Source: Candidatus Poribacteria bacterium (lineage in GTDB: Bacteria; Poribacteria; WGA-4E; WGA-3G). Taken from it: a stretch of 64,000 bases of DNA. The notes under the pieces are model-generated. The model ran no database searches. It was given only the letters and a program-made list of their open reading frames with translations, and was not told the DNA's origin. Below, piece by piece: positions 5,405 to 48,500 of this stretch. Both the position numbers and the translations under genes were made by a program. The number at the start of each line of letters is the position of its first letter. Positions within the stretch are counted from its first letter, which is position 1. The stretch spans positions 1,664,001 through 1,728,000 of the forward strand of contig OZ240248.1 in the NCBI GenBank assembly GCA_965198235.1. Reading direction: 5' to 3'.

Positions 5405-5558
5405 TTTAATTTATGGTCCTCTGGACTGCCCTCCACTATGTTAAGGGCAGGTTCTTGATGGACTCAGCAGTAAGCGCAACCAACGGGCGCGCTGGATATA
5501 CGCCGAGGATCGTTATTCATTCAACCCACCTCACCGATCCGCAAGGGAAAATTAAAGA
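5405..5558. repeat. Junction element, family A
   Basis: Left end ttttaatttatggtcctctggactgccctcca matches reverse complement of 39575-39612; right end ccgcaagggaaaattaaa matches 51075-51094; abuts SDR ATG and contains FAH stop codon. Confidence 0.75.
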
Positions 5559-6481
5559 CCTTTTTCCGTCCATTCCGCGGGGTTCACGTCAGGTTCACCG
5601 ATTTGGTTTCTGAGTACGCCGATGTTTTCAACCTCAAGTTCAATGACATCCCCAGGTTGAATCCAGCGGTCGAGTTCCCACCCGCACCCTTTTCCGACGG
5701 TGCCGGAGCCTAAAAACTCGCCGGGATGGAGCGTCTCTGATTGTGATACGAACGAAATCATTTCTTCAAACGAGTAATACATATCCGAAGTATTGCCATC
5801 TGCCCAGACTTCGCCGTTGACTCTGGCGATCATTCGGAGGTTGTACGGGTCGCGGATTTCATCTGGTGTAACGAGGCAGGGTCCCATAATGTTGCTATTG
5901 TCGAAATCCTTCCCTTTAGCGGGACCGAGTGCCATGGTCATGTGCCGAAATTGAATATCCCGCGCACTGATGTCGTTGTAAATGGTATAACCAGCGATGT
6001 ACTCGGAGGCTTCTGCTACGGAGATATTTTTTCCAGTTTTGCCGATATAGATGCCCCACTCCAGTTCAAAATCGAGTTTTTGGGTGTAGTTGGGCCAAGT
6101 GACAACGGCTTCGTGTCCGGTAATGGAGGATGGACTCGTGCTGCCGCGGTAATAGTTGGGCAGTTTGAACCATTCAGGCGAGATCTCTTTGCCGGTAATC
6201 CGCGCGGCGGCATCCATGTGGGTTTTGAATACGCCGAAATCGCGTAGGCTTGCAGGACGTGGAAACGGCGCGAGCAGTTGCACATCAGCCACAGGGAAAA
6301 CAACATCGGACAGGTCTGTGCGTTCAATGTACCTTTGCGCGTCGGCTATGCAATTCTGTTCAAAGAATTGGCACATATCTGGGGCAACTGCGGTGAGGTC
6401 AACAATCTGATCGCCGTCAATCCGAGTGCCGAGCCTTGGTGTAGTAGGTGTTGATTTGGTTTGAAAGGTAACGAGTTTCAT
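5552..6481 (-). CDS. Fumarylacetoacetate hydrolase family protein
   Basis: DFELE, NDISARD, KGKDF, GSGT motifs. Confidence 0.9.
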   Translation of the reverse strand: MKLVTFQTKSTPTTPRLGTRIDGDQIVDLTAVAPDMCQFFEQNCIADAQRYIERTDLSDVVFPVADVQLLAPFPRPASLRDFGVFKTHMDAAARITGKEISPEWFKLPNYYRGSTSPSSITGHEAVVTWPNYTQKLDFELEWGIYIGKTGKNISVAEASEYIAGYTIYNDISARDIQFRHMTMALGPAKGKDFDNSNIMGPCLVTPDEIRDPYNLRMIARVNGEVWADGNTSDMYYSFEEMISFVSQSETLHPGEFLGSGTVGKGCGWELDRWIQPGDVIELEVENIGVLRNQIGEPDVNPAEWTEKGL

Positions 6482-6710
6482 AAGCGTTCTGTATTACGAC
6501 AATTACAACTCCTTGTTCAAATAGTTGTATAGTGTTGATTATACGATAGATACATTTAGAAATCAAGATTTTTTTTGAAAGTTTAGATAAGATTTTTCTT
6601 GCGTCTACGACGGAGATGCGGCATAATGAGTTGTATACGTTTTACACATTTGCGGGTGTTCCTGTTGATATCGCTGACCCTGTGATAGACCTGCCGAAAT
6701 AAAAGAGGGA

Positions 6711-7469
6711 ATGAGTATGGTTACCCGGCAAGACATTCAAGCTACATGTGATGACATCGTACGCGAATTCGCGCCACTACAAATTATTCTTTTCGGTTCT
6801 TATGCGTACGGCACACCCTCGGAATACTCTGATGTTGATTTGTTGATAGTGATGCCGGGTCCGAAATCAGAGACGCGCAGGCAGGAAATAGAGATTCAAG
6901 AACGTATTCCGCGCCGCTTCCGCATGGACTTGCTCGTGCGTTCGTCTGAGGAGATAGCGTATCGCCTCTCTTATAACGACTGGTTTCTCCGCGAGGTCAC
7001 TGAAAAGGGTGAAGTCCTCTATGAATCTGCCAATTTTCTCTTGAAACCGCCGAAAAAGGAACAGTGTGCCATGAATCCGTTGGCATTGGAATGGGTAGAG
7101 AACGCCGAAGAGGATTATCTTGGGATGCGGCAGCTTCAGCAAGGGCAGCATCCGCTATATAATATTGTATGCTTCCATGCCCAGCAATGTGTCGAGAAGT
7201 ATCTAAAGGCATGGCTTCAAGAGCGGAACATTCCCTTTCCGAGAACACATGATTTAAAAGAATTGCTGGAACTGGTTCTTCCTGCGATGCCTATTTGGCG
7301 GGTTTGGCAGCCCGATTTTACATTGCTTTCCAAATACGCGGTGGCGACTCGCTATCCCGGTGCCTCTGCTACAGCCGACGATGCAGAACACACGGCGCGC
7401 ATCTGTACTGAGGTGCGTCAAGCCGTGCGCGAGCATTTAAAACTACCGCTTGATGGAACAGCTGACTAA
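6711..7469 (+). CDS. Fused MNT (minimal nucleotidyltransferase)-HEPN domain protein
   Basis: GSYAYG...SDVDL in N-half; FHAQQCVEKYLKA, RTHDL, TRYPG in C-half. Confidence 0.85.
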   Translation: MSMVTRQDIQATCDDIVREFAPLQIILFGSYAYGTPSEYSDVDLLIVMPGPKSETRRQEIEIQERIPRRFRMDLLVRSSEEIAYRLSYNDWFLREVTEKGEVLYESANFLLKPPKKEQCAMNPLALEWVENAEEDYLGMRQLQQGQHPLYNIVCFHAQQCVEKYLKAWLQERNIPFPRTHDLKELLELVLPAMPIWRVWQPDFTLLSKYAVATRYPGASATADDAEHTARICTEVRQAVREHLKLPLDGTAD

Positions 7470-8734
7470 GGAAGTTTCGGCTTTGTTAGCAGATGCACAA
7501 GTGGTGGTTCGCCTGTCAACGTTTCTAAAAACTCGACAAGATCTCTTTTTTCCTGTTCACTGAGATGGAGGGGTTCCACTGGGCCTGCGCTTCTGCCGAC
7601 AAATTCGTTTGTGGTGCCGCCTACGTCATTGAATTCAATCACAGAAGCGAGTGTTGGAAATTCGCCGGTGTGGAAATAGGGTGGCGTTAGTGCGACGTTA
7701 CGGAGGGTTGGCGTTTTGAATTCGCCTTGATGTTCCAGTCTCGGCTCCAGGAGACTCAGCATGCGTGTGGCATCCGCCCTTGAATCGCTATAGATGCTGG
7801 TACTGTTAAACGGATCGGCTAAGAGTTTCGCGATTCCTTGGAAACGTCCGGTATCTTCTGGCAGCGCGCCTTGTGGTATCCCAAGGTTATGGAAATCGTT
7901 GTCTCTAAAGTGTGGTGTTCCATGGCAGAGGACACAGACACCTTTTCCGATGAATATCTTTAAGCCGCGCTTTGCTTCAGGTGTAATCGCCTCTTCATCG
8001 CCTGCTACATACTGATCGAAAGGTGCGTTCCGACTAATCAAAAGGCGTTCGTAGGCTTCAATTGCCTTACCGATGTTTGCAAAGACAGTGTTCGCAGCAA
8101 CCTGATCAGCTTCGGACATGTTATCGAACACCGCATCGCCGGGTTTACCATTAGGCGGGAAACGTGTGGCATCTTCGAGTTCAGGAAGGGTGCCGAAGAC
8201 GGCTTCATATTCTGCTTCATAATGCCCTTTGATGAGGTGTGCGTACTGGAGTCGTGTGCCGGCTTGTTCTTCGCCACCTTCGAGTGCGAATAGTGCTTGT
8301 GCCCAGAGGGTCTCCGCGCGTCCGTCCCAAAATTGCCATTTGTTATAGGCAGCATTGAGAACGGTTGGTGCATTTCTTGTGCCGCGTCTGGTCCCTAATG
8401 AAGTGGCTTCAACATCGGCAAAGCCATGGAATGGTGAATGGCATGTTGCACAGGAAATTGTGCCTTCCTTTGAGAATCGTGTGTCAAAGAAAAACATCTG
8501 CCCTAACTGTGCCGCATCTGGATTATCAGCGACGCGATTTGTGAGACTTGGTGGTGGTTTGTCAGGTAGAGGCGATAAACTTTCAATCACTGCCCATTCG
8601 CTCTCGGTAAAGAGATTGGGAGTCTCCGTGAGGTGTTCTGGCTCAGATTCGGGTTGCATCTCTTCAATGCTTTCTTCACCGCACCCAAAGAGAAGTAGGG
8701 CGACGTTGCCTATAATCCAGATGATTAGACGCAT
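7466..8734 (-). CDS. Di-heme cytochrome c peroxidase/MauG family lipoprotein
   Basis: CATCH and CVLCH, QFWDGRA, FKTPTLRNV, PYFH; lipobox LFGC; start taken at MRLIIW (8734). Confidence 0.88.
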   Translation of the reverse strand: MRLIIWIIGNVALLLFGCGEESIEEMQPESEPEHLTETPNLFTESEWAVIESLSPLPDKPPPSLTNRVADNPDAAQLGQMFFFDTRFSKEGTISCATCHSPFHGFADVEATSLGTRRGTRNAPTVLNAAYNKWQFWDGRAETLWAQALFALEGGEEQAGTRLQYAHLIKGHYEAEYEAVFGTLPELEDATRFPPNGKPGDAVFDNMSEADQVAANTVFANIGKAIEAYERLLISRNAPFDQYVAGDEEAITPEAKRGLKIFIGKGVCVLCHGTPHFRDNDFHNLGIPQGALPEDTGRFQGIAKLLADPFNSTSIYSDSRADATRMLSLLEPRLEHQGEFKTPTLRNVALTPPYFHTGEFPTLASVIEFNDVGGTTNEFVGRSAGPVEPLHLSEQEKRDLVEFLETLTGEPPLVHLLTKPKLP

Positions 8735-8787
8735 GATTGACGTTTCCAACGGGCGGGATGAACCGATGTCGTAGCAGACAGCACACA

Positions 8788-9762
8788 CTATATCGTCAAG
8801 GACAGGAACAGTTCCTCAAGTGACATTTCAGTCGTGTGCATTTCAAGCAGTTGCCATCCACGTTTGACGATGGTTGCTGCTACTTCTGAACGGATGTCGG
8901 TCGCCAGTGTATAGTGAAGGTGGAACGTCGCCGTGTCATCCGTATCAGTATCGATCTGATCGACTTGAATCACGTTTGGTATGTCGTGGAGTTCGGTTGA
9001 TATATCGTCTGCTGGTGCTCCTGCTACCTCAAGTGCAAGAATGGAGGAGGCAACTTGCAAATTCTCTGTATTACGGGTAGATCCATCGCTCTGTCTGGGG
9101 GCGGCACGTCCATCTTTCAACAGAACATCCCCTGTAATTTTACCACGACTGATGATAATCAACCGTTCGCATGTGAGACTGGCTTCGGGTAAGATGTGGG
9201 TGCTGAACAGGATAGTCCGTTCCTTGCCGAGTGCTTTGATTAGTTCTCGAATTTCGACAATCTGCCGTGGATCCAATCCGGAGGTGGGTTCATCGAGAAT
9301 TAAAACGTCAGGCTCGTGAATGAGTGCTTGTGCTAAGCCGACGCGTTGTCGAAAACCGCGCGATAGTTGTCCGATAATCTGATGCCGGCGTTCGGTGAGA
9401 CCGCATGCCTCAATGGCATTATCCAGTTGCCCTTTGATGCTATTACGCGGCACACTGCGGATCTTTGCCATGTACATCAAGTACTTCGTCACCGTCATTT
9501 CCGGATAGAGCGGAACGTTTTCGGGGAGGTAACCGATGCGTTTCCGAACCTCTCGCGATTCTTTGAAAACATCATATCCGGCGACGGTAACGCGTCCGCT
9601 ACTCGCCGGCATAAAACAGGTGAGGATTCGCATTGTCGTTGTTTTTCCTGCTCCATTAGGACCGAGGAAGCCGACAATTTGTCCCTTGTCTACTTGGAAG
9701 GAGATGCCCTTGAGTGCTTGGAAGGGACCGTAGTTTTTGGTGATATTTTGAACTTCAATCAT
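8788..9762 (-). CDS. ABC-2 type transporter ATP-binding protein (GldA-like)
   Basis: GPNGAGKTT, LSRGFRQRV, ILDEPT, H-loop. Confidence 0.92.
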   Translation of the reverse strand: MIEVQNITKNYGPFQALKGISFQVDKGQIVGFLGPNGAGKTTTMRILTCFMPASSGRVTVAGYDVFKESREVRKRIGYLPENVPLYPEMTVTKYLMYMAKIRSVPRNSIKGQLDNAIEACGLTERRHQIIGQLSRGFRQRVGLAQALIHEPDVLILDEPTSGLDPRQIVEIRELIKALGKERTILFSTHILPEASLTCERLIIISRGKITGDVLLKDGRAAPRQSDGSTRNTENLQVASSILALEVAGAPADDISTELHDIPNVIQVDQIDTDTDDTATFHLHYTLATDIRSEVAATIVKRGWQLLEMHTTEMSLEELFLSLTI

Positions 9763-9967
9763 TTTTTAATTATTGGGCTTCTGGTCTGCCTTCCAAATGT
9801 AAAGCATTCTCACTGCGAAGCAAAATTATGCCGTTTAAGGAAACCTAATTTCATTTCAGGCAGGTTTTCGGTAATCCTAACGCCTCCATCACCGCTCTCT
9901 GTCAAGAATTAATCAGAAACCATCGCGAAACGTAGTGGAGCAGTGCCCAGATTTAATCGTTAAAAAA
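9763..9967. repeat. Junction element, family A
   Basis: 9763-9880 matches reverse complement of ~39500-39612; right ~60 bp is the gaaacgtagtgga module; abuts ABC ATG. Confidence 0.85.
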
Positions 9968-9990
9968 TCGTTCGTTAAGCGGGGCGCGGT

Positions 9991-10890
9991 TCACACCTCA
10001 TCAATAGAAGTTTGTAAGTTCCGAGGAATATTGAAGTTTAGATCTCGGTCTCTGCCCAATAGATAAGGATTGTTATCCGGATTGACTGCTGCTGATTCAG
10101 CGAGGACATCCGGTAAGTTGACCGGCACGGACTTCACGTCAACTCTATCGGGATATACCAGGACCTGTCGCCACATCATCGGATAACAGATAATGCCAGA
10201 GGAGACGATACACAGCATACCTTGCTCTCTGAAGACGCGATTGAGATGCAGGTGTCCACAGAAAAATGCCAAAATTTGTCTTTCAAAGGGGGCGGTAATT
10301 TCGAGAACCTCTGCGGAGTTGGCAACTCTTGAACCAATCCCCTGGAATTCGACACTTGGAAACGGGAGTTGATGTGAGAAAATGAAAACCTCTTGGTTGT
10401 AATCACGCGCCCTTTTCAATTCTCGCTCTGTCCACGCCAGTTGGTTAGTGCTGATATACCCGTGTGTGAGGTCTTCGGGCACCTCCTGCGAATCGAGGAG
10501 GAGAAACCGGATATTTTCGTGCACAAAACTGACAGAGCCCATGCCGTTGGTACTGAAGCGTGCCAAATAATCGTCTTTAGAACCGGTTTCCGGATGCAAA
10601 TCGTGGTTGCCGGGGATGTAATAGCAAGGAGCATTCATACGCTGCCCGAGTTGTTGCGCACCGTCAAGTGTGGCTTCGTATTCTTCTGCGAACATGTCAA
10701 AACTGTTACCACCGCACACGATATCCCCGCCATGAATTACAAAGGCAGGCTCAAACGCGTTCAGTTGTTCAACTAATTTTTCATAGAGTGCAAGACTATT
10801 TTTTTGCTGTTGAAGTCCGCTTGCGAAGTTCTTCGGCGCGTTTAAATACAGATGTGTGTCCGTAATAAAAGCAAATTTAAAAAGTATCAT
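9991..10890 (-). CDS. Calcineurin-like metallophosphoesterase (CpdA/Icc-like)
   Basis: DTH, GD, GNHD, SH, GHLH motifs. Confidence 0.88.
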   Translation of the reverse strand: MILFKFAFITDTHLYLNAPKNFASGLQQQKNSLALYEKLVEQLNAFEPAFVIHGGDIVCGGNSFDMFAEEYEATLDGAQQLGQRMNAPCYYIPGNHDLHPETGSKDDYLARFSTNGMGSVSFVHENIRFLLLDSQEVPEDLTHGYISTNQLAWTERELKRARDYNQEVFIFSHQLPFPSVEFQGIGSRVANSAEVLEITAPFERQILAFFCGHLHLNRVFREQGMLCIVSSGIICYPMMWRQVLVYPDRVDVKSVPVNLPDVLAESAAVNPDNNPYLLGRDRDLNFNIPRNLQTSIDEV

Positions 10891-10996: not shown

Positions 10997-11740
10997 TCAG
11001 GAATGCACATGTTTGGATAGAATTGCGACATAAGTCGGTGTATCGGCTGCGTCAATGTAGCGTTCGACCCGCCACGCTGTTCCGTCAAGGATGTCTTCGA
11101 TCTCCGCTTTTGAAACAAACAGATAATCGAACCATGGTGTAGCGTATTGTTTGTATCGGATCCGTAGTTTCAACTGACCGCTCATCCGTCCTCTATCTCT
11201 ATTGAATTGATGATAGGCGAGATGACCTGGATCTGTCGTTTCGTAAGGGTCCATTGTTTCAGCGATAATTTTTGCGGTATCTGTTGTCATAGCAGCGAAG
11301 CGTCTCAATAGCCATTTTGCTCTTTTATAACTTCCAGCGAGTCCGAAATTGTGTCCTATCATGAGAATCGTGTCAAAGGTGCCAATTTTGGAATTCAACT
11401 GCGTGACAGGCGCGACAAGAGCATTTTTGAGCCCACGGCTTTGGCAGGTCTGGATGGCTAATGGTGAGATGTCCGTTCCTAAAACATCATGTCCCTGTCC
11501 TTGGAGATAGAGGCAGTGCCGCCCTGCACCACAACCGATATCCAAGACCCGTCCTATAGCGTGCGCTATTGCGAGTTTTTGATGTTCAGCCCAGTCCTCA
11601 TATTCAGCGAAATAGTTGAAAGGTCCCAGGCGGCTTACATCAATGAATCCGTCTTCTCTCTCCACAATTTCGACGTTTTTTTGACCGTTATGATAATCTG
11701 AAAGGAGGTGCCCATAGGCATCTTGGATGTCGGTTAGCAT
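10997..11740 (-). CDS. Class I SAM-dependent methyltransferase
   Basis: VLDIGCGAGR; start taken at MLTDIQ (11740), just after the sulfatase stop. Confidence 0.85.
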   Translation of the reverse strand: MLTDIQDAYGHLLSDYHNGQKNVEIVEREDGFIDVSRLGPFNYFAEYEDWAEHQKLAIAHAIGRVLDIGCGAGRHCLYLQGQGHDVLGTDISPLAIQTCQSRGLKNALVAPVTQLNSKIGTFDTILMIGHNFGLAGSYKRAKWLLRRFAAMTTDTAKIIAETMDPYETTDPGHLAYHQFNRDRGRMSGQLKLRIRYKQYATPWFDYLFVSKAEIEDILDGTAWRVERYIDAADTPTYVAILSKHVHS

Positions 11741-11741
11741 T

Positions 11742-13094
11742 TTACTGTTCCTTGACGTAACCGGTTGTACCGTTCGGGTTGACCCATTCGGTCTCCCAAT
11801 GCGTTTCAATGCCTTCGCGCCACGTTTGAGCGGCTCCTGTCAATTCAGTGGTGAGTTCCGGGTGTTCATCTTTCAGGTTCTTCGTTTCACCCATGTCGGT
11901 GTCGAGGTTTGCGAGATGCACATCGTCTTCTGGAGGCGCGCCCTCTACCAATTGACCGTTGAGTACCAATTTCCAATTACCACGACGCACAGCAGTCTGC
12001 TTACCCATCTCCCAATAGATTTCGCGATGTGGTGTGGGTTCGCCGTTTGTCACCATAGGGAGTCCATCGAGTCCATCGAGTTCGTAGGCAGAGGGATCTC
12101 CACCTGCCGCTGCGAGAAAAGTCGGGAACACATCCATTGCTGCGCCGACTTCATTGATTACCTGTCCTGCGGGAATTTGTTGGGGCCAATTCATGATTCC
12201 GGGTGAACGGATGCCGCCTTCATAGAGACTAAATTTATGTCCTTTCAGTTTACCGGCAGTGCCGCCGTAATACGGGTCCTGTGTGCCATCTAACCAATTT
12301 CGGGTTTCACGCGAGGGACCATTGTCGCTTTGGAAATAGGAGAAGGTGTTTTCTGCAAGTCCGAGTCTCTCAAGTTCGGCAAAAATTTCGCCGACGCTAT
12401 CGTCAACGGCACTGAGCATTGCCGCCATAATCTGTCTGTCCCACGGCAGGTTCGGGAATCGGTCCACGTACTTCTGAGGCGCGTGCATCGGATAGTGCGG
12501 TGCGTTGTAAGGCACGTAGAGAAAAAAAGGTTTACCGAGTTCAACAGACTTTCGGATATATCTGATGGCGTATTCGGTGATAAGTTCGGTGAAGTATTCA
12601 CCGTTGCGGTAGATTTCTTCGCCGTTTTCCCAGAGGTCATGTGTTTGATCGATGCCAGGTTGTCCTAAGCCCCAATAGAAGATGTGCGAGAAGAAATCGA
12701 TGCACCCTGCCATGAATCCGAACCAATCGTCAAACCCGTGGTGTTCCGGACGTGAACCCTCTGCGAGCCCCAGATGCCATTTTCCAGACATCGCCGTGTA
12801 ATAGCCTCGTTCCTTCAGTGCTGTTGCGAGCGACGGAATAGAAGGCGGTAACCCTGTAGCAGTGCGATGCCCTGATAAAATGGAACGGACCCCAGCATGG
12901 CACGGGTATCGTCCTGTCAGTAATGCTGCGCGCGAAGGGGAACAGACGGGTGAATTTGAGTACCAGTCCGTGAAGCGTGCTCCCTCTGCTGCCATTCTGT
13001 CGAGATGTGGCGTTTTGAAATCAGTCGCGCCCATGCAGGACAGATCACCGTATCCTTGATCGTCGGTTAGGAAGATAATAAAATTAGGTTGCAT
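11742..13094 (-). CDS. Sulfatase (formylglycine, Cys-type)
   Basis: DDQGYGD, CSPSRAALLTGR, GKWHLG, SDNG. Confidence 0.93.
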   Translation of the reverse strand: MQPNFIIFLTDDQGYGDLSCMGATDFKTPHLDRMAAEGARFTDWYSNSPVCSPSRAALLTGRYPCHAGVRSILSGHRTATGLPPSIPSLATALKERGYYTAMSGKWHLGLAEGSRPEHHGFDDWFGFMAGCIDFFSHIFYWGLGQPGIDQTHDLWENGEEIYRNGEYFTELITEYAIRYIRKSVELGKPFFLYVPYNAPHYPMHAPQKYVDRFPNLPWDRQIMAAMLSAVDDSVGEIFAELERLGLAENTFSYFQSDNGPSRETRNWLDGTQDPYYGGTAGKLKGHKFSLYEGGIRSPGIMNWPQQIPAGQVINEVGAAMDVFPTFLAAAGGDPSAYELDGLDGLPMVTNGEPTPHREIYWEMGKQTAVRRGNWKLVLNGQLVEGAPPEDDVHLANLDTDMGETKNLKDEHPELTTELTGAAQTWREGIETHWETEWVNPNGTTGYVKEQ

Positions 13095-13100
13095 TTTTCC

Positions 13101-13183
13101 TTTCTTTTAATTAGTCGCCAAGCGTAGCGGAAATGGCTTTGTGCATGCACCATTCCTGTTTGCTTTTGCTAATTTTAAGAAAA
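13101..13183. repeat. Short junction element, probable family A
   Basis: Imperfect inverted ends tttcttttaattag / ctaattttaagaaa; internal aagcgtagcggaa resembles the family core aaacgtagtggaa. Confidence 0.4.
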
Positions 13184-16298: not shown

Positions 16299-16664
16299 TT
16301 AAGAGGGATTTTCAGTGTTTTCAGTGGAGACCTCTTCCTCGGTTTCTTCAGTTTGTCCTTCTTGCTGTGCGACTTTTTCCTGTCTATTGATGGCACGGAC
16401 GTAACCCATTCTGAGTTCATAGAGGGTGTTTGCCAAGAAGTTGGTTTCTGGTGCAGTGAGATTTCCCTTCGTCTTTTCTTCGAGCATCTCAATAGTATCA
16501 ATAATATGTTTCACGAGCGGGAGGTTTATAACTACCTCGTCCGTTTCGGGGTTAGGGATCCCCTCTAAGTAGAGCCGTCCTGTTTCTACAAGGTTGGCAA
16601 GATAACTCATAAAATCGACAGGAGGAAGTTGTTGAGTTTCCTCCTGAGCCGTAGTTTCTTCCAT
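16299..16664 (-). CDS. DUF1844 family protein
   Basis: LEGIPNP...NLPLVKHIID..EMLEEKTKGNL...L.ELRM pattern. Confidence 0.8.
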   Translation of the reverse strand: MEETTAQEETQQLPPVDFMSYLANLVETGRLYLEGIPNPETDEVVINLPLVKHIIDTIEMLEEKTKGNLTAPETNFLANTLYELRMGYVRAINRQEKVAQQEGQTEETEEEVSTENTENPS

Positions 16665-21722: not shown

Positions 21723-22051
21723 TAGATTGGATTTATTTTCGGAATAGCTGAAACTCGTGTAAAAAAGTGCAAGAGTTTCTTGACGAACACAAATTACAAC
21801 CAGAGAGTCGGACTGATGCGCGAAAAGAGAAAATGGATGCAACAGCGGTATGGGATTTAATGGGCAGTGCGGAGCGAATTGTTGTTGCGAAAGGGAGGCG
21901 CGTGGAAACCTTCGTACCAACCGAAGACATGCAGGAATCAATCTTAAAAGCGGTGATAGGACGAAGCGGCAGCCTACGTGCACCGACAATACAAAGCGGG
22001 AATGTCTTCCTTGTTGGTTTCAACGAGACACTCTATAAAACAAATTTTTAA
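21719..22051 (+). CDS. ArsC/Spx-like thioredoxin-fold protein, probable selenoprotein (UxxC)
   Basis: GGAGGA RBS and ATGA coupling; MIDWIYFRNS-TGA-NSCKKVQEFL in frame with ORF 21767..22051 (GRSGSLRAPT...VGFN); hairpin immediately after TGA. Confidence 0.8.
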
Positions 22052-29552: not shown

Positions 29553-29575
29553 GTAGGAGGGGTTTTTAACCCCGA
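29553..29575 (+). repeat. GTAG-type REP
   Basis: gtaggaggggtttttaaccccga; 22/23 identical to 45255-45277 inside murE. Confidence 0.75.
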
Positions 29576-32605: not shown

Positions 32606-33604
32606 CTACTTGCTTTCAGTATAACCCCCCAAGTAGAGTGTGTCTTGGTACCGGACATCAAGATATGGCTTTCTTACACTCGGGATCTCACCCATAAGTT
32701 CAAGGATCCGAGTTTTATGCTGTTTTAGAAGCAGGGTCGTATGATGAAGCCCAGATTCGATCGCGTCTCCAGCAAGCCATACTGGTACAGGCAGCGCATC
32801 AATCTGTAGCTTAATTTTTTGGAAATCACTTGCGTCGATAATCCGTATTTGTGCCGCAAGTGCTGGTTCCTGGAGCAGGGCAGTCTTTAAAACCTCTAAT
32901 CCCAATTTAACCTCGCTTCTCTGAACGGCAGTACCAATTCTCGGTAGTTCATTACTCACTACCGGGAATATCGCCATTCCTTCAAGCCCTTCAAATCTCC
33001 ATTGACCTGTTTCTCCAACCTCTATATTTTTTAACACATGTCCTTCGCTATCTACGAGAAAAAACGAAATATCACCATCGAGTGGCGCACTTACAGCGGA
33101 TGATTTATTACCTAACGTTTGTACTCTGGGCATGTGCGCTTGAGAAGTTTGCGAAGCATTACCGAACCGCAGGAGAGCAAAAGGTTCACGTTCGGTGACT
33201 TCAATGGTGAGTATCCGCTTCATCACATGTTTAACGACGTGTACTTCTTTAATGTAACTCAAGCTCTCCTTCAGATAGTCAGCTGTTTGCTCTTCGGAAT
33301 CTGTGACGATATTTTCTAACTTCTCGCCTAATACATCATAGATTTGTACATCAGTATAGTGTATATTCCCTGAAAGTTCAAGTGAAACGTATCCAGCACT
33401 AAAAAAACCGAGCCCTATTTTTCCTGCAAACGATAAAGTAACCATGACCGCGATGACGAGGATTATACGCCGCCACATGTATATTTTGGCGTTGGGGTGT
33501 TTACCAAGTCGTCGCGCAGGCATTGAAGTCTGCCACGTATATCCATTACGCTTTTTACCAATTTTTAAGTGATTGAATCTGGTCATCGTTCCACTTCGTT
33601 TCAC
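32606..33604 (-). CDS. ftsQ: Cell division protein FtsQ/DivIB (start uncertain)
   Basis: TM helix, POTRA-like region ending EREP, YLDVRY C-terminal motif, position between murC and ftsA; the longest start lies in a repeat. Confidence 0.75.
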   Translation of the reverse strand: MKRSGTMTRFNHLKIGKKRNGYTWQTSMPARRLGKHPNAKIYMWRRIILVIAVMVTLSFAGKIGLGFFSAGYVSLELSGNIHYTDVQIYDVLGEKLENIVTDSEEQTADYLKESLSYIKEVHVVKHVMKRILTIEVTEREPFALLRFGNASQTSQAHMPRVQTLGNKSSAVSAPLDGDISFFLVDSEGHVLKNIEVGETGQWRFEGLEGMAIFPVVSNELPRIGTAVQRSEVKLGLEVLKTALLQEPALAAQIRIIDASDFQKIKLQIDALPVPVWLAGDAIESGLHHTTLLLKQHKTRILELMGEIPSVRKPYLDVRYQDTLYLGGYTESK

Positions 33605-33756
33605 GATGGTGTTCGTCGAATTCCGACGCGATCGAGGACATGTACGATTTTTATGTGCTTATATCCGCTACCCATCATTATTGGGAGAGGTTGGACTTCA
33701 TCGCGGAAATCGCCGTGAAATGTAATGGAACGGTGCCCGGCGTTAATCGTTTAAAA
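33562..33756. mobile_element. ~195-bp MITE-like junction element with ~60-bp imperfect TIRs (family A)
   Basis: Left arm is the reverse complement and right arm the direct form of the module gaaacgwagtggaacggtgnccagatttaatngtttaaaa; contains the murC stop codon. Confidence 0.8.
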
Positions 33757-35107
33757 GTCTATTTAAGAACTCGTGTCCTACTTTGCTGATGTCCCCTGCT
33801 CCCAGTGTAATGACGATATCTTCTGGTTGTGTTATTTTCATCAGAACGTCCGTAACTTCATCTGTGTCTGGTACATAGAAGACATGACGATGCCCGTGTG
33901 ATTGTATCGCTTCTGCCAGTTTTTCAGCCGTGACGTTTTCAATAGGTGCCTCACCTGCACTATAGATTGAGGTAACAATGAGGACATCTGCCTGATAAAA
34001 AGAGCGAGAGAACTCATCTGCTAAATCTCTGACACGCTGATATCGATGTGGCTGAAAAACGGCGACGATACGACGCTTATAACCGTCGCGCGCACCACTC
34101 AATGCGGCTTTCAACTTCGCTGGATTATGTGCGTAATCGTCAACGACAATGATGTTCTTAGCTTCACCGAGTACTTCAAAGCGGCGATGTACTCCCTGAA
34201 ATGACTCAAGACTCTCCCGGATTTGATTGAACGGAATATCAAGTTCAAGTCCAACAGCTATCGCTGCCAAAGAGTTAGAAATATTATGGCGGCCCGGCAT
34301 TTTAAGGTGAATTTCGCCATATAGGTGTCCATTTTTGCGAACTCGGTAACGAGATGTCGGACCTTCTACAGTAATGCCTTCAGCAGTCAGATCCGCTCGC
34401 GTTTCAAGTCCATAAGTAATATAACGCTTTTTAACCCGCGGGATAAATCTCTGAATATTCTCAGCATCTAAGCAGAGGACTGCGGTACCGTAGAACGGGA
34501 CTTTATTGATGAATTTGAGGAAGGTTTCACCAATCTCGTCAACGCTACTGTAATAATCCAGATGGTCGGCATCAACTGACGTAACAACAGCAACAGTCGG
34601 ATAAAACATCTCAATAGAGCCATACGCCTCGTCTGCTTCGACTACCATAACATCACCTTCGCCACTTCGAGCGTGACTACCATTCATGAGTTTCCCACCT
34701 ACAACGACCGTCGGATCAAGACTGGCAACGACTGTCGCAGTCATAGCGGTTGTAGTTGTTTTTCCATGTGTCCCGCTGATAGCAACGCTATAGCGCATGC
34801 GAGTAATTTCATTTAACATCTCCGCGCCTCTGACGATTGGAATTTTCTGTGTTTCTGCAGCGAGAAGTTCTGGGTTATCAGGTGGAATAGCAGGAGACAT
34901 AACGACGACATCGGCACCCTGTATGTGTGATGCTGCATGCTCATAATGGATAGTTGCTCCCCGTCCACGCAAGTGTTCCGTAGTGTATGACTTTCGGATA
35001 TCTGAGCCTGTTACGTGGAATCCGAGGTCCAGCAGAATCTCAGTGATGCCACTTAAGCCAGCACCTCCTATGCCGATGATATGGATATGTCGTGTTTTTC
35101 CAAACAT
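33743..35107 (-). CDS. murC: UDP-N-acetylmuramate--L-alanine ligase
   Basis: GIGGAGLSG, GTHGKTTTT, EADE, DHLD, DDYAHNP, FQPHRY; start MFGKT at 35107. Confidence 0.95.
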   Translation of the reverse strand: MFGKTRHIHIIGIGGAGLSGITEILLDLGFHVTGSDIRKSYTTEHLRGRGATIHYEHAASHIQGADVVVMSPAIPPDNPELLAAETQKIPIVRGAEMLNEITRMRYSVAISGTHGKTTTTAMTATVVASLDPTVVVGGKLMNGSHARSGEGDVMVVEADEAYGSIEMFYPTVAVVTSVDADHLDYYSSVDEIGETFLKFINKVPFYGTAVLCLDAENIQRFIPRVKKRYITYGLETRADLTAEGITVEGPTSRYRVRKNGHLYGEIHLKMPGRHNISNSLAAIAVGLELDIPFNQIRESLESFQGVHRRFEVLGEAKNIIVVDDYAHNPAKLKAALSGARDGYKRRIVAVFQPHRYQRVRDLADEFSRSFYQADVLIVTSIYSAGEAPIENVTAEKLAEAIQSHGHRHVFYVPDTDEVTDVLMKITQPEDIVITLGAGDISKVGHEFLNRLLND

Positions 35108-35280
35108 TTTTTTAACGATTCGCAAGGCGTTAAGTCAAGCGATTAGGTCCATAACGGTTTTCATTGGGAAGTCGCCTGCGCCGTTGTTGCAGGCTGACCT
35201 CATTTTTTATTCGCGCTGGAATTCACCGAAGACCACCGTGAAACGAAGTCGAACGGTGACCAGAGTTAATAGTTTAAAAA
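35108..35280. repeat. Junction element, family A
   Basis: Homologous to 22045-22240; abuts murC ATG and encodes the last codons and stop of murG. Confidence 0.85.
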
Positions 35281-37861: not shown

Positions 37862-39307
37862 CTAATGAAGGGGTTGGAGCGCGTCAACTGCTTCTTTAAA
37901 ATCGGTACCTCTTGCTTTGTAATCGGGGTACATATCAAAACTCGCATTTGCCGGGGACAACAGGACGACATCGCCCGGTGACGTGTGTTTATGTGCCATC
38001 TGCACGGCTTTTGCCATTGTTTCAGCTTTCATTATTTTCGTGGTATTGGCGAGAGTCTTTTCAATCTGTTGGGTGTACTCTCCGAGCATTACTGCCCCTT
38101 TAACCTTAGTTTGAACAATTTCACGCAAAGGCGTGTAATCATTACCCTTGTCATACCCTCCCATTATCAGTAGAACCTGGGAATCGGCTAACGATTCAAG
38201 AGCTGCTTTGACGGCTGCCACGTTTGTCGCTTTTGAGTCGTTTATGAATCGGACCCCTTCTAAGGTCCGCACCAACTCAAAAGCGTGGGATAAAGCGGGG
38301 TGCGACCGATCGAAGCATTGAAGTGCTTTTCGGATCTCTGCCCGTGTTACACCAAAAATCTGTCCTACAGCAATAGCGGCGAGGACGTTCTGTACATTGT
38401 GCGCCCCTGGAAGTGGAATGTCTATGATGTCACATATCTTCTCGCGTGTCTCATTCTGCTGCGCGAAAAGCCCCGAACCCTCTCTAAATGTTCCTGAGAA
38501 CGACAAATCTTCAGGAGCACCTTTGTCTGTAAAGTAGACCGCTTCCGCCGATGTTGATGCTGCGAAATCTTTGACAGATGCATCTGAATCATTGAGAACT
38601 ATCCAGTCTGCAGTCGTTTGGTTGTTAGAGATTTTCTGTTTTGCTTCGCAATAGGCGGACATTGTTCCATGTCTGTCCAAGTGGTCGCGAGACAAATTAA
38701 GCACAACGCTAACCTTCGGATGAAAGGTCACGGTGCTTTCCAACTGAAAACTACTTGCCTCAACAACGACTATATCTCGACTTGTAAGATTTTGAACCTC
38801 CGCTGCCAATGGAACACCGATGTTGCCAGCAACGCGAACGTTTGGAAATCTACCACCGGCTTTTAGTATGGCAGCTGTGAGCAGCGTCGTTGTTGATTTA
38901 CCTTTCGTGCCAGTGATGGCGACAATAGTTGCTGGACATACGCTCGCGGCAACCTCCAATTCTGCGAGGATTGGGAGGTTTCTCGACCGCGCCTCGCACA
39001 GGATCGGAATATCAAGCGGTACACCCGGGGAGGCCACTATCAGGTCTGCATCTGTAATGCATTCCAAAGGATGCCCGCTAAAATATGTTCGATACGGATT
39101 ACAGATGTCTGAAAATCTACTGTTAGCGATCTGCGCTTTGCTTGGCTCTGAGGACTCATTGAGCGCAGCAATTTCTGCTGATAGTGTTTCACGAGAACGC
39201 GTATCTGTAAGCGTAACAACGGCGCCGTGTGAATATAGTAATTTCGCCGCGGCGATCCCGCTCCGATTCAAGCCAAAAACTGTAACCCGTTTTCCTTGTA
39301 ATTGCAC
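37862..39307 (-). CDS. murD: UDP-MurNAc-L-Ala--D-glutamate ligase
   Basis: SPG, GTKGKSTT, GNIG, SSFQL, DHLDRH, NDSKATN, LLSPA; start taken at GTG 39307 (VQLQGK). Confidence 0.94.
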   Translation of the reverse strand: MQLQGKRVTVFGLNRSGIAAAKLLYSHGAVVTLTDTRSRETLSAEIAALNESSEPSKAQIANSRFSDICNPYRTYFSGHPLECITDADLIVASPGVPLDIPILCEARSRNLPILAELEVAASVCPATIVAITGTKGKSTTTLLTAAILKAGGRFPNVRVAGNIGVPLAAEVQNLTSRDIVVVEASSFQLESTVTFHPKVSVVLNLSRDHLDRHGTMSAYCEAKQKISNNQTTADWIVLNDSDASVKDFAASTSAEAVYFTDKGAPEDLSFSGTFREGSGLFAQQNETREKICDIIDIPLPGAHNVQNVLAAIAVGQIFGVTRAEIRKALQCFDRSHPALSHAFELVRTLEGVRFINDSKATNVAAVKAALESLADSQVLLIMGGYDKGNDYTPLREIVQTKVKGAVMLGEYTQQIEKTLANTTKIMKAETMAKAVQMAHKHTSPGDVVLLSPANASFDMYPDYKARGTDFKEAVDALQPLH

Positions 39308-39612
39308 TTTTTTAATTATTAAATCTGTTAACCATCGAAGAAATCCGCAGAAACACCCAAGCAAAAACCCCAAGCAAAAACACTCGTGCTTTAACATTTA
39401 TAGCGGAGTCGAGTTGATGGTTAAACCGCTCCACTTCGTTCCGCGGTGGTTTTCGGTTAATTCTAACTGCCTCTGGAATCTGAACGTTATTTAACAAAGT
39501 CTGTTAGGAGGATCAAAAACCTGCCCGAAATGAAATTAGGTTTCCTTAAATGGCATAATTTGTCTTTGCTTTACATTTGGAGGGCAGTCCAGGATCCCCA
39601 TAATTAAAAAAA
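39308..39612. mobile_element. 305-bp composite junction element (family A) between mraY and murD
   Basis: Inverted ends ttttttaattat / ataattaaaaaa; contains modules shared with 9763-9880, 5405-5440, 43259-43295 and the gaacgaagtgga core. Confidence 0.85.
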
Positions 39613-39615
39613 TAG

Positions 39616-40719
39616 TTACCGAAGTTTCAATGTGCTTAAGGCGATTAAGACCAAAATAAGCCCCACAATCCAAAATCGGATGACAACTTTGGATTCCTTC
39701 CACCCTGAGAGCAGGAAGTGATAATGGATAGGAGACATTTTGAACACACGTTTGCCAAATGTACGGAATGACCAGACTTGGATGATGACCGATAATGTTT
39801 CAGCGACGAAAATGGCACCGACTATCACGAGTAGGAATTCCTGCTTTATAAGCACTGCTACCGTTCCAAGTGTGGCACCGAGTGCCAGCGATCCAGTATC
39901 TCCCATAAAGACTTGCGCCGGATGCCCATTATACCATAGAAATCCCAAGCCTGCCCCGACCAATGCTGCACAGAAAACTGCTGTAACTTCTCCTCCTACT
40001 GGTAGGTGAAAGATGTCCAGGTACGCTGCAATCTCGCTGTGGCTCGTCATGTACCCGACTATACCTAAGGTCCCTGCAACAAACAGGGTGCATCCAATTG
40101 CTAATCCGTCCATTCCATCCGTAAGATTGACTGCATTAGAGGCCGCAACTATGACCAGAGTTGCAAAAGGGATAAACAGAATACCTAAATTTGGCTGAAC
40201 CTCTTTGAAAAAAGGAAGGATCAGCGATGTCCGTGTTGTTAAATCTCCAGTGTGCGTGGGACCCCACTGGTAAAGATAACCAGCAATCGCTAATGCTCCT
40301 ACTGTTTGAAGTCCAATCTTATGCCAACCGCGGAGTCCTAAGGATTGTTGCTTTACCAATTTGCTGTAATCATCTAAGAATCCGAGTCCACCGAACCAGA
40401 GTGTTGTTAGGATCATCAAGTAGATATAGGGTTGATCCAAACGCGACCAGAACACTACGGATATCAGGACGGAAACGATAATAAGCACGCCTCCCATTGT
40501 TGGAGTCCCTGCTTTACTTTGGTAATCTTTTGGTCCCTCTTCGCGTATGTGTTCGCCGATTCGGAGTTGTTTGAGCCGATTTATCATGAACGGTCCCAAG
40601 ACAAGCGCGATAATCAGTGATGTTGCCGTTGCATAAATTGCTCGGATACTGATGTAACGAAAAATGTTGAATGGCGAAAAGACATCAACGAGGTTCTCAT
40701 ATAGGAGATGGTAAAACAT
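39616..40719 (-). CDS. mraY: Phospho-N-acetylmuramoyl-pentapeptide transferase
   Basis: KAGTPTMGG, DDY, NAVNLTDGMDGLA, FMGDTGS. Confidence 0.96.
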   Translation of the reverse strand: MFYHLLYENLVDVFSPFNIFRYISIRAIYATATSLIIALVLGPFMINRLKQLRIGEHIREEGPKDYQSKAGTPTMGGVLIIVSVLISVVFWSRLDQPYIYLMILTTLWFGGLGFLDDYSKLVKQQSLGLRGWHKIGLQTVGALAIAGYLYQWGPTHTGDLTTRTSLILPFFKEVQPNLGILFIPFATLVIVAASNAVNLTDGMDGLAIGCTLFVAGTLGIVGYMTSHSEIAAYLDIFHLPVGGEVTAVFCAALVGAGLGFLWYNGHPAQVFMGDTGSLALGATLGTVAVLIKQEFLLVIVGAIFVAETLSVIIQVWSFRTFGKRVFKMSPIHYHFLLSGWKESKVVIRFWIVGLILVLIALSTLKLR

Positions 40720-41944: not shown

Positions 41945-42049
41945 TTTTTTAATGGCTTTCAGCAGTTGGCTATCGGCTATCAGTTAAGAGGTTTTCGTTT
42001 AATAGAAGCCTTTTGTGACTGATGGCTGACGGCTGATGGCTGACGGCTA
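41945..42049. repeat. Heptamer-armed element (family B)
   Basis: Left ctatcgg/ctatcag, right (ctgatgg ctgacgg)x2; core ATCAGTTAAGAGGTTTTCGTTTAA identical to 44506-44529. Confidence 0.75.
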
Positions 42050-44470: not shown

Positions 44471-44572
44471 GTTTTTTAAAGGCTATCGGAAACCATCGGT
44501 TCTCCATCAGTTAAGAGGTTTTCGTTTAACGTTCGTTTAACGGAAGTCTTTTTGCTGATTGCTGATTGCCAT
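44471..44572. repeat. Heptamer-armed element (family B)
   Basis: Same 24-nt core as 41979-42002; right arm gctgattgctgattgcc encodes the murE C-terminus AISNQQ. Confidence 0.75.
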
Positions 44573-46054
44573 TTCCAAAAAATCTGAGGCGATAACCCTA
44601 TCGTCAAAGGGAAATCTTTTGCCATTAATTTCCTGATAATCCTCATGTCCTTTACCCGCGATTACAACAACATCACCGGATTTTGCCGTCGCGATTGCGT
44701 GATGAATAGCGTCGCGTCTCTCTGAAATACACACATACTCGGTATCATGTGGTAAATTTGACGCAATTTGCGCGATGATTTCATCAGGGGCTTCGGTGCG
44801 CGGATTGTCGGAAGTAATCACGCTATAATCCGCAATTTGGGCAGAAATATTTCCCATCTTAGGACGCTTTCCCTTATCCCTATCGCCACCGCATCCGAAA
44901 ACACAAATCAAATTACATTCAGCAACACGCTTGGCGGCAGTCAACACATTTTCTAAACCATCGGGTGTATGTGCATAGTCAACGATGACAGCGAAATCCT
45001 GTCCTCGATCAACAAGCTCAAATCGACCGGGAACTATAGTAGCGGCGAGACCTTCCTGAATTGCTGAGAGCGGACAATCGTAACGAAGCCCAACAGCAAT
45101 GGCGGCAAGGGCATTGTAAAGGTTGTATTCTCCGAGTAATCGTAACTTAGCGGGGATTCGTCCATCTGGCGTAACCGCTGTAAACACCAATCGATTATGA
45201 GAAAAATTAATATCCTCGGCATATAGATCCGCTTTTTCACCAAGTCCGTACATCGTAGGAGGGGTTTGTAACCCCGAAACCTTGCAGGCGTGGGCAATGC
45301 GCTCCGCTACCGGTGAGTCGCTGTTCAAGATCGCAACGCCTTCCTTGTCGAGTTGCTCGAACAACATCAGTTTCGCCTTTAAATATGCTTCCATCGTTTG
45401 ATGGTAATCAAGGTGGTCCTGGGTGAAGTTGGTAAAAACAGCCGTATCGAAGGTAAGCCCTGCCAGTCGCTGCAGTGCTAACCCTTGGGAGGAGGTTTCC
45501 ATCGTAACGTATTCTACGTTGTCCTCAGTAAACTGCTTGAAAAGAGCATGGAGTGCGAACGCATCGGGGGTTGTGAGGGAAGCAGAGAGTGTTTCCTCTT
45601 CGCCTTGGGCGTTTGTGTACTGGTGTCCGACTGTTCCAATGAGTGCTGTTTTCCGCCCGCTTGCCTTGAATATGGCATGTATAAGGTGTGCTGTTGAGGT
45701 TTTACCGTTGGTGCCTGTAATACCGATGAGTTTAAGACGTTTTGCAGGGTTTCCGTGCCAATTGGCGGCAAGTAAGGACATCGCTCGGCGTCCGCAGGGA
45801 ACTCGCACATAGGTAATCGGCTTTTCTTGGGTCTCTATAGTTGTTATCGGTTTTTCACCAATGACAACTGCTGCTCCTTTTTGAAGTGCATCTGGAATGA
45901 AGTTGTGACTATCCACGCTGATGCCTTGATAACAGACAAAAACATTACCGAATTCGACTTTCCGATTGTCACTGGCAACACCCGTAATATCAATATCCAG
46001 CGATCCAGAACTTGTGGTAATGTTAAGCCCACGGAGCAGTTGACGAAGCTTCAC
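44537..46054 (-). CDS. murE: UDP-MurNAc-dipeptide--diaminopimelate ligase
   Basis: GTNGKTST, TTPD, DHLDYH, DYAHTPD, GCGGDRD, DNPR, AGKGHE. Confidence 0.96.
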   Translation of the reverse strand: MKLRQLLRGLNITTSSGSLDIDITGVASDNRKVEFGNVFVCYQGISVDSHNFIPDALQKGAAVVIGEKPITTIETQEKPITYVRVPCGRRAMSLLAANWHGNPAKRLKLIGITGTNGKTSTAHLIHAIFKASGRKTALIGTVGHQYTNAQGEEETLSASLTTPDAFALHALFKQFTEDNVEYVTMETSSQGLALQRLAGLTFDTAVFTNFTQDHLDYHQTMEAYLKAKLMLFEQLDKEGVAILNSDSPVAERIAHACKVSGLQTPPTMYGLGEKADLYAEDINFSHNRLVFTAVTPDGRIPAKLRLLGEYNLYNALAAIAVGLRYDCPLSAIQEGLAATIVPGRFELVDRGQDFAVIVDYAHTPDGLENVLTAAKRVAECNLICVFGCGGDRDKGKRPKMGNISAQIADYSVITSDNPRTEAPDEIIAQIASNLPHDTEYVCISERRDAIHHAIATAKSGDVVVIAGKGHEDYQEINGKRFPFDDRVIASDFLEMAISNQQKDFR

Positions 46055-47850: not shown

Positions 47851-47913
47851 TTAATGTAAATTTGAGCACCTTCCAACAGAGCAAAAAGGGCACCTTAACC
47901 CTAAAAGACTAAA

Positions 47914-48240
47914 CTATTTATCCCAGACTATCTGTGAGGCTTCGGTGGGTTCAACCATTCCGAGCTCAGTCGCGATTTGCCGAATCCTTTGAACACCCGT
48001 TAAGGTTGATTCTTTCAATTCAAGTCGATGAATTTCGTCCTGAATTTGACGCTTCTGCCTCTCGAAAGTAGGCTGTCGTTGCAAAGCAACCTTCTTGGCG
48101 TAAGATGAGAACCAGATGCTGCCAGAGAAGGTACAGAAAGATAGCACCAGAACAATATACGCTAACGGAAATCTCTTTTTCGGTTTTGGGTCTTCTGTAT
48201 TCGTAATGCGTGTCGAATGACTATTATGTAATGTTTGCAT
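47914..48240 (-). CDS. ftsL: Cell division protein FtsL
   Basis: TM plus coiled coil ending RI..IA.ELGM..P; located between rsmH and ftsI. Confidence 0.75.
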   Translation of the reverse strand: MQTLHNSHSTRITNTEDPKPKKRFPLAYIVLVLSFCTFSGSIWFSSYAKKVALQRQPTFERQKRQIQDEIHRLELKESTLTGVQRIRQIATELGMVEPTEASQIVWDK

Positions 48241-48342
48241 TTATTCAACTACCTAAACGGAGTTGGAAGATGGACTCTATGCTTCAATCCTACGTCCTTT
48301 TACAACTATTCCGCACATATTCATTGGGTGACAAAGGCTCTC

Positions 48343-48500
48343 TTTTTTAAAGGTTGAATACTGTATTTTTAAACGTTGAATGCTGTATTTAAGATACATT
48401 ATAATTGTAAAATTCATCTACTTTCGCAAAGACGAATGGACTTAACCAAAAACCACCGTGAAACGTAGTGGAACGGTGACCAGATTTAATAGTTAGAAAA
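48343..48500. repeat. Junction element, family A, with internal 22-bp tandem duplication
   Basis: ttttttaa start; tttttaaaggttgaatactgta / tttttaaacgttgaatgctgta; right module ccaccgtgaaacgtagtggaacggtgaccagatttaatagtt. Confidence 0.75.

Follow-up and report, generated by a model that had tools for sequence, protein, structure and literature searches.

A dispersed hairpin repeat of Candidatus Poribacteria whose ends meet the start and stop codons of neighbouring genes

The window analysed here, a 64,000-nt stretch of Candidatus Poribacteria DNA (contig OZ240248.1 of assembly GCA_965198235.1, positions 1,664,001 to 1,728,000), carries a family of small repeats at the junctions between genes. 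The family is built on one hairpin unit with a covarying stem. The end of the unit meets the start codon of one neighbour in a fixed register and, read from the other side, supplies the stop codon of another. On balance, we take the family to be an old dispersed repeat of the REPIN, BIME or BOX kind that has been co-opted as intercistronic cassettes.

Anatomy of the hairpin unit and its covarying stem

A preliminary description of the window listed seven elements (E1 to E7 below) with TTT(TT)AA...TTA(A/G)AAA ends and shuffled modules in common. The seven are related. BLAST of each element against the window links all of them, and repeat finding agrees, giving a 67-nt family of 5 copies plus inverted copies at 33562–33631 and 39430–39463. 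A hairpin unit of ~70 nt is common to all seven, the outer ends being TTTTTAA...TTAAAAA. The shared parts are real, and they are better described as one hairpin unit with several stem types, occurring singly or in inverted pairs and with nested inserts, than as shuffled modules. A possible eighth member at 13101–13183 was rejected; BLAST against the window matched it to itself only, and it resembles none of the other elements. An iterated nhmmer profile placed units on the minus strand at 5400–5467, 33558–33629 and 39425–39468, and on the plus strand at 9906–9970, 22174–22242, 33690–33757, 35213–35280, 39578–39613 and 48437–48501. A 32-nt degenerate pattern of the unit has 6 matches in the window and none in each of 100 shuffles.

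The unit comprises, in order, a short conserved 5′ flank, a 6-bp stem, the loop GAAACGWAGTGGA, the second side of the stem, CCAG, ~10 nt, and the tail TTAAAAA. The loop is conserved and 13 nt long, and it can close by two more pairs, which also covary. The sequence of the stem is free, with at least 15 distinct and perfectly complementary versions. Watson-Crick pairs are present in 112–121 of 122 units at each of the six stem positions, and in the 68 start-abutting units 99.3% of the stem cells pair. Those 68 units contain 87 double-sided stem changes, against 20.4 ± 6.9 in shuffles, and none of 500 shuffles reaches 87. Sliding the stem partners by 1–3 columns leaves pairing in only 11–51% of the cells. 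The many complementary versions and the covariation indicate that the stem is retained by its structure rather than its sequence. The unit matches no curated family of Rfam 15, and permissive scans of two elements gave hits at chance level, the best with E = 0.29.

Over their outer ~20 nt the two element ends mirror each other as inverted copies, which extend from a T-run to CTGG on one side and from CCAG to an A-run on the other, and so form terminal inverted repeats. An inverted partner within 350 nt was detected for 36 of 118 units; in many of the others the left arm has decayed or is of a different kind. Many apparent singlets keep an upstream extension of ~45 nt, and often a T-run left end that carries a different hairpin as well. 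The modular look of the family comes from this variety: a unit may stand alone, have a left arm that is degenerate or of another type, or pair with an inverted copy, and smaller pieces are nested in some.

Register of the unit to start and stop codons

Starts were scored by a strict test, which takes the first ATG after an in-frame stop within 75 nt, opening at least 80 codons. It replaced a lenient start-codon criterion, which was dropped as it also scored 235 of 695 control positions. By the strict test, such a start follows 52 of 105 pattern matches, at +8 to +49 past the pattern, 30 of them at +17 and 44 at +16 to +18. Control positions at the same loci, shifted by 400–1800 nt, have a start in 70 of 2605 cases, with no more than 6 at any one offset.

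The stop side has a register of its own. Among the 35 pattern matches that lack a lenient start call, 28 have the stop of an antisense open reading frame (ORF) at most 70 nt away. Eight of these stops fall at +2 and nine at +9 to +11, positions that lie inside the reverse complement of the TTAAT and TTAAAAA of the unit. The start-side and antisense stop-side registers together indicate that a single unit end serves as leader in the forward reading and as stop in the reverse one. Whereas the distances to start and stop codons might have been no shorter than expected for intergenic DNA, the ends meet both far above the control level and in a fixed register.

The genes downstream of the units are of all kinds and include those for ProRS, NuoF, DXR, MutL and UvrD as well as riboflavin, proteasome and ABC transporter genes. 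Among the window genes that lack a unit, roughly half have a Shine-Dalgarno (SD) sequence and the rest have A-rich leaders, as judged by eye. The unit-free genes with leaders of the TTAAAAA type include ddl, an alpha/beta hydrolase gene and mraY.

A fixed register to the ATG, an invariant loop and a covarying stem would also suit a pure cis-regulatory RNA, namely an operator hairpin for one trans-acting protein or RNA that was never mobile and gained its copies by local duplication or gene conversion. The better conservation of orthologous copies than of silent sites, the position of some units between a promoter-like site and the ATG, and the finding of neither bursts nor a transposase in the material searched agree with such an operator. 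We nevertheless consider it unlikely, as 28 of the 105 pattern matches are antisense and beside the stop of the gene they face, and 36 of the 118 units have an inverted partner within the distance given above. An operator would also have to account for the nested inserts that units carry, for a copy read in frame in a hydantoinase B gene and for an end-like piece in RNase P RNA, and the unrelated functions downstream are unlike a regulon.

Distribution and age of the family

The 32-nt pattern (~43 bits) was used to scan a genome collection, in which fewer than one chance match is expected by our own arithmetic; the loci so retrieved are designated by L-numbers. The pattern occurs at 97 or more loci in at least 28 assemblies, so the modules are not confined to the window. 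Among the assemblies listed, 26 are titled Poribacteria and 2 'uncultured bacterium', and none of the matches listed comes from a record titled as another phylum. Among those matches, then, the family is seen only in the sponge-symbiont Candidatus Poribacteria. The profile gave 142 hits in these loci and the window, nearly all of them between ORFs. The 2-kb flanks of 80 loci contain ~11 more units well away from the seed, and the window holds 7 elements in 64 kb. Extrapolated from these two densities, the copy number would be in the hundreds per genome.

Units of one assembly are no more alike than units of different assemblies, with identities of 0.704 within (250 pairs) and 0.706 between assemblies (5210 pairs). 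The best pair within an assembly is 0.92 identical over 64 nt, no near-identical pair was found within a genome, and each genome has the same mix of stem versions. Genome-specific subfamilies were looked for in the same comparison and none appeared. The equal identities within and between assemblies suggest that the family is old and has had no recent bursts.

Alleles with and without the element

Collinear gap comparisons among the retrieved loci and the window gave 39 cases. Units are present in one partner only in 12 of them, at ~8 junctions, and in both partners in 4. Six of the presence/absence junctions were aligned in detail. A junction occupied in L011 by a 221-nt element has in L076 a spacer of 18 nt that includes an SD sequence, and the flanks are 96% identical. 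In three comparisons (L014 with the window, L011 with L076, and L005 with L053), the alleles begin to differ at the last codons or the stop of the upstream gene and agree again at the shared ATG. Without the element, an allele carries a stop of its own together with a short spacer and an SD sequence; the other allele has the element only, and in L014 the element contributes one Phe codon and the TAA.

Empty alleles in sister genomes had been suggested as a means to define the target site. Element-free alleles do exist, but they are replacements of the whole spacer rather than pre-insertion sites. Because the whole spacer is swapped together with its own stop and SD sequence, the alleles are exchanged ones and do not represent empty target sites.

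At the ABC ATPase junction, both the window and L057 have an element, with the well-conserved unit on opposite sides. On either side of this junction, L057 aligns across window positions 7466–8788 without the di-haem cytochrome c peroxidase gene, and across 10997–11809 without most of a methyltransferase gene. These differences are gene-content turnover beside repeat junctions.

Of 80 start-abutting units, 29 fall in 13 orthologous gene groups. In 20 orthologous pairs the identity is 0.87 for the unit, a value biased upward in that both orthologues had to match the search pattern, 0.71 for the 120 nt upstream, 0.65 for third codon positions, and 0.93 for first and second positions. Compensatory stem changes are found between orthologues, for instance in L011, L067 and L074.

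Presence and absence that vary between genomes, and inverted ends of ~20 nt that always have a T-run on one side and an A-run on the other, are features of a selfish miniature inverted-repeat transposable element (MITE) as well. Its DDE transposase would target a T-run/A-run palindrome, for example with a TTAA core, and the 'ends' would be target sequence. The position at gene junctions would arise where a TAA stop meets an A-rich leader that serves as target, and the TTAAAAA-type leaders of unit-free genes (ddl, the alpha/beta hydrolase gene, mraY) show that such leaders exist. The aligned element-free alleles, however, lack a T-run/A-run target at the junction. Many copies are single units with no matching left end, the in-frame copy included, near-identical copies occur in no genome sampled, there is no insertion sequence (IS) partner in 320 kb of flanks, and the orthologous copies are conserved above silent sites. 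A MITE of this sort, and with it this origin of the junction position, is quite unlikely.

Promoter-like sites

Sites with at least 10 of 12 matches to the sigma-70 consensus were searched for at 51 start-abutting units. None was found inside a unit, and all 4 sites found lie upstream of one; the consensus may not be the rule in Poribacteria, so this is weak evidence. In L065 a 12/12 site stands ~100 nt upstream of the ATG with the unit between them, and since the site precedes the unit, the unit would be part of a 5′ untranslated region of ~100 nt. The same locus has, at 1917–1980, two back-to-back sigma-70-like sites (12/12 and 11/12) between divergent genes, and the unit follows the plus-strand one. 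The position of promoter-like sites upstream of units suggests that the unit would act as a leader, not as a promoter.

The opposite arrangement would be a promoter in the unit that faces outward, with an abutting mRNA that is leaderless or nearly so. Leaderless promoters show a fixed distance to the ATG such as that of the unit, and the region ahead of the tail is AT-rich. Besides the outcome of the scan, which holds for a consensus that may not be that of the host, the candidate hexamers lack an A at position 2 or a T at position 6, and many units lie within operons such as dcw (division and cell wall). A promoter function of the unit appears highly improbable.

Proposed origin and role of the cassettes

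According to the reading that we prefer, that of an old repeat co-opted between cistrons, the cassette would occupy the entire spacer between two genes. Where a unit lies in sense before the downstream gene, its A-rich tail would meet the start codon directly and replace the SD sequence. Translation would start independently of SD, on an open A/U-rich leader beside a fixed local hairpin. Toward the upstream gene the end, read backward as TTTTTAA and ATTAA, would offer stop codons in two of the three frames, and the gene's own stop would thereby become dispensable. As for the history, the units may have spread by a transposition-like process, whatever its enzyme. A deletion bias would have removed the redundant old stop, the spacer and the SD sequence until the element touched both coding regions. 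Useful copies would have been kept by selection and vertical inheritance, with occasional gain, loss and allele exchange. A minority of copies retain an SD-like stretch between tail and ATG (e.g. L010, L031, L041 and L054). Their persistence between the element end and the ATG fits a stepwise compaction, of which these few copies would be intermediates.

Several results weigh against this reading, most of them on the side of mobility. The preliminary description took the elements to be non-autonomous and their ends to act as stop codon and translation leader. The meeting of ends and codons holds at scale; mobility gained no support from a target-site duplication, a transposase or a burst within a genome. 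The junctions read have a start codon on one side and coding sequence on the other, and no direct repeat lies outside the ends, with a palindromic TTAA within the ends as a possible duplication. The search for an IS or HUH transposase with matching ends found none in the flanks sampled or the window. No Y1/HUH or DDE transposase is among the 222 cluster representatives (150 searched by Pfam and 72 by NCBIfam) of the 289 flanking ORFs in 320 kb of flanks, which are mostly housekeeping and metabolic genes, nor among the 53 ORFs of the window (Pfam). The element-free alleles reflect exchange of the whole spacer and give no empty target sites, and the units of a genome, none of them near-identical to another, give no hint of recent bursts. 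On the side of structure, G-U and A-C mismatches (15 vs 7 in 122 units; 6 vs 3 in 68 units) fail to tell which strand folds, and the RNA folds of three whole elements have no clear advantage in stability over shuffles (z = -1.3, -2.0 and -0.7). The upward bias in the conservation of orthologous units counts on the same side, as does a 97-locus sample that leaves out the source genome of the window.

In a strict REP/REPIN system, unlike in the co-opted repeat, a REP-associated tyrosine transposase (RAYT), encoded by a single-copy gene elsewhere in each genome, would act on the hairpin, and the placement at gene ends would be a by-product. The hairpin with its free stem and fixed flanking and loop sequences has the right form, and singlets and inverted doublets are both present. 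An old, burst-free family seen in one lineage among the matches listed also fits the persistence of REPINs. REPs carry a GTAG tetranucleotide at the 5′ foot of the hairpin. The Poribacteria stem has ACC or ATC there, and GTAG occurs only in the loop, as the T variant of a W position. No Y1 transposase was found in the flanks sampled or in the window, and a strict ATG register is not a known property of REPs, nor was it found in the literature searched. We regard this alternative as distinctly improbable.

A bolder form of the co-opted repeat may also be considered. The domesticated mobile hairpin would be a standard intercistronic part, in which a dedicated factor, either a protein or the ribosome, recognises the invariant loop of 13 nt where the covarying stem presents it, at a set distance from the AUG, and recruits ribosomes or cuts the polycistronic mRNA. 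We put this forward tentatively and think it unlikely. If true, it would mean a lineage-specific system of SD-independent initiation or processing that serves a large share of the genes, essential cell-division genes included.

The seven elements of the window

The individual elements show how the unit is placed between genes. Five start-codon contacts, with SDR, ABC, epimerase, murC and murD genes, are found where the preliminary description put them, the murD start being probably GTG. A sixth, which was not on that list, is the TTG of the gene in the FtsQ position, at 33561; this start is backed by a sister genome, where the downstream in-frame ATG is not kept. Four neighbour stops lie inside element ends as claimed, those of FAH, of a 94-aa ORF (described as ArsC-like), of murC and of murG. 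Four elements lie within the dcw cluster, as Pfam matches confirm.

E1 (5405–5558) has a left unit at ~5400–5467 on the minus strand, with a stem of the CTGCC type, which adjoins the SDR start codon at 5402–5404. Its right arm (5468–5558) is of a longer sub-type, and the FAH stop (5552–5554) lies in its tail. E2 (9763–9970) has a left unit at 9763–9881 on the minus strand, the halves of which are parted by a loop insert; it adjoins the ATG of the ABC ATPase at 9760–9762. The right unit is at 9906–9970 on the plus strand, and the neighbour's own TGA stop is ~20 nt further on (9991–9993).

E3 (22045–22240) lies between plus-strand genes. Its right unit (22174–22240, plus strand) adjoins the epimerase ATG at 22241, and its left arm (22045–22142), of another hairpin type, carries the TAA stop of the 94-aa ORF at 22049–22051. 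E4 (33562–33757) is an inverted pair of units. The minus-strand unit at 33562–33629 adjoins the TTG start of the FtsQ-position gene (33559–33561), and the plus-strand unit at 33690–33757 contains the murC stop (33743–33745). In E5 (35108–35280), the left arm at 35108–35206 is of the type of the E3 left arm and adjoins the murC ATG at 35105–35107, and the right unit at 35213–35280 on the plus strand contains the murG stop (35266–35268). The left arms of E3 and E5 represent a third hairpin type, which shares only the outer ~12 nt with the unit.

E6 (39308–39612) has a minus-strand unit that is split by an insert of ~97 nt into a tail at 39301–39327 and a hairpin at 39425–39468; the unit adjoins the probable murD GTG at 39305–39307. 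Its inverted unit (39503–39612) has a loop insert of ~85 nt and ends 3 nt ahead of the mraY stop (39616–39618). E7 (48343–48501) has two end-like copies at the left, then an AT-rich spacer and a unit at 48437–48501 on the plus strand. The rsmH stop (48543) is on one side of it and the ftsL start (48240) on the other, neither of them in contact with it.

A block of ~110 nt had been noted at 9763 and, inverted, at 39500. It exists, with 67 nt at 87% and 45 nt at 89% identity, and it is a hairpin unit of the CTGCC/GGCAG stem type, the loop of which holds the ~85-nt insert. In the sister genome L027 a loop insert of this ~85-nt type is present in the orthologue of E4, and the E4 of the window is without it. 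The insert that splits the murD-side unit (39328–39424) contains the motif CCCAAGCAAAAAC twice in tandem, and the motif is also found within the stem region of a unit in L003 (~1880–1905). The motif is perhaps one more mini-insert nested in a unit.

For four genes, the FtsQ-position gene (33604), murC (35125), murD (39397) and the epimerase gene (22208), the longest-ORF start falls within the repeat and is probably false. Gene callers may over-extend N-termini in Poribacteria genomes that carry the repeat.

Copies in unusual places

A unit-like insert, of the sub-type of the E1 right arm, is read in frame in a hydantoinase B gene (50645–52336, plus strand). It lies at 50969–51097 on the plus strand and comprises ~105–125 nt, or ~40 aa, in a loop of the enzyme; the loop motif of the unit is at ~51012–51026 and the tail is read as K-I-K-K. 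From the 120 Poribacteria orthologues listed, 32 were picked across the length range and aligned. Five have the ~40-aa insert, 1 has a shortened one, 4 have another insert in the same loop, and 22 have a short loop only. A comparison with six-frame translations of the window insert no more than suggests that the second insert type may be the same element in another frame.

RNase P RNA (52420–52931, minus strand), which is the sole Rfam match of the whole window at the gathering threshold, is 512 nt long against 367 positions in the model, and its helix P12 is extended by ~160 nt. The extension opens with a stretch like an element end (52768–52801, minus strand); the match is weak and covers the end alone.

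Gene content and other repeats of the window

The window has a G+C content of ~48%, and the minus strand carries most of its genes. The closest DNA retrieved is that of Candidatus Poribacteria metagenome-assembled genomes, with 82–94% identity across flanking genes. A complete dcw cluster occupies ~29.8–49.5 kb (Pfam). Its order in the window is ftsZ, ftsA, the FtsQ-position gene, murC, murG, ftsW, murD, mraY, ddl, a Mur ligase gene, the alpha/beta hydrolase gene, murE, a penicillin-binding protein gene, ftsL and rsmH. Other Pfam families of the window are sulfatase, ASPIC/UnbV, Laminin_G_3 and GFO/IDH/MocA. In L056 a fragment of TnpB, an RNA-guided nuclease of the IS200/IS605 type, is encoded at 3–830 on the minus strand, ~1 kb from a unit. 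Nothing was seen that ties it to the repeats, and the corresponding position in the window is occupied by a gene of the Uma2 family.

Three further kinds of repeat were observed. A small repeat rich in stop codons is present at 41951–41983, ~44480–44530 and 59496–59528; two of these places are the 5′ spacers of ddl and the alpha/beta hydrolase gene, and the third is near 59.5 kb. Strings that resemble it are found upstream of units in several loci (e.g. L040, L001 and L074). A hairpin family, in which G-run and C-run arms flank a short AT-rich loop, is present at 29553–29581, 45255–45283, 59457–59485 and 16543–16567, and two of its copies are within long ORFs (the murE ORF and a DUF1844 ORF). 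Finally, a tandem pair of 47-nt copies (61841–61887 and 61913–61959), 87% alike, lies directly upstream of an ECF sigma factor gene (61981–62526); both copies open with an A-run and GTGCAAC.

Relation to known repeat families

The Correia (CREE/NEMIS) elements of Neisseria are small, bounded by inverted repeats, located in or beside operons, and co-transcribed. Their RNA hairpin is cut by RNase III, and their ends can affect the expression of neighbours. They have a TA target duplication and promoter elements. The Poribacteria family differs in that no duplication was seen at its junctions, no promoter-like site was found in its units, and the folding of whole elements is not clearly stable. 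The Rickettsia palindromic elements (RPE) insert in frame in protein genes, where they are tolerated in surface loops. The copy in hydantoinase B, read in frame in a loop, is like them; unlike them, there is one in-frame case here, and the Poribacteria family is overwhelmingly intergenic.

The BOX repeats are modular, composed of boxA, boxB and boxC. In Streptococcus pneumoniae, the repeat is reported to encode the stop codon of the neighbouring gene in 36 cases and to be co-transcribed with neighbouring genes (PMC3049150). The Poribacteria family is like BOX in this modular build and in lending the neighbour its stop codon. Sequence and host differ, and in that description the start codons found in BOX belong to new and doubtful ORFs without a good Shine-Dalgarno sequence, not to resident downstream genes, and it reports no fixed register to resident starts (PMC3049150).

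The likeness to the REPs, BIMEs and REPINs of proteobacteria is wider. They too are short extragenic hairpin repeats that occur singly or as inverted doublets, with variable linkers and a mosaic look, and in which the structure of the stem is kept while its sequence is free. REPINs persist and are inherited vertically over long times in their lineages, as three reports state (PMC3337134, 10.1101/2022.05.22.493013, 10.1101/2021.07.10.451892), and the Poribacteria family resembles them in this as well. It is unlike them in its unrelated sequence, its different host phylum, its conserved 13-nt loop, and the lack of a RAYT in the flanking ORFs and the window. The ends of the Poribacteria units also meet start codons in one register and supply stops, a register that was not found described for REPs. 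Neither the family itself nor an exact register to resident start codons at this scale was found described in the literature searched.

Significance

That small dispersed repeats are present in many bacteria is known already, as is, from BOX, the lending of stop codons by a repeat (PMC3049150). In the Poribacteria family, about half of the sampled copies take the place of a Shine-Dalgarno sequence, in one exact register before the start codon of a resident gene, and orthologous copies are retained better than silent sites. The unit can serve as a simple marker for Poribacteria contigs. The family also offers a test bed for how deletion bias, together with element ends that are pre-adapted to the purpose, may weld a repeat to coding boundaries. 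If the leader role is true, an entire phylum without cultured members would have made a repeat family into an expression part that it can use again and again, and gene calling in the phylum would be affected too.

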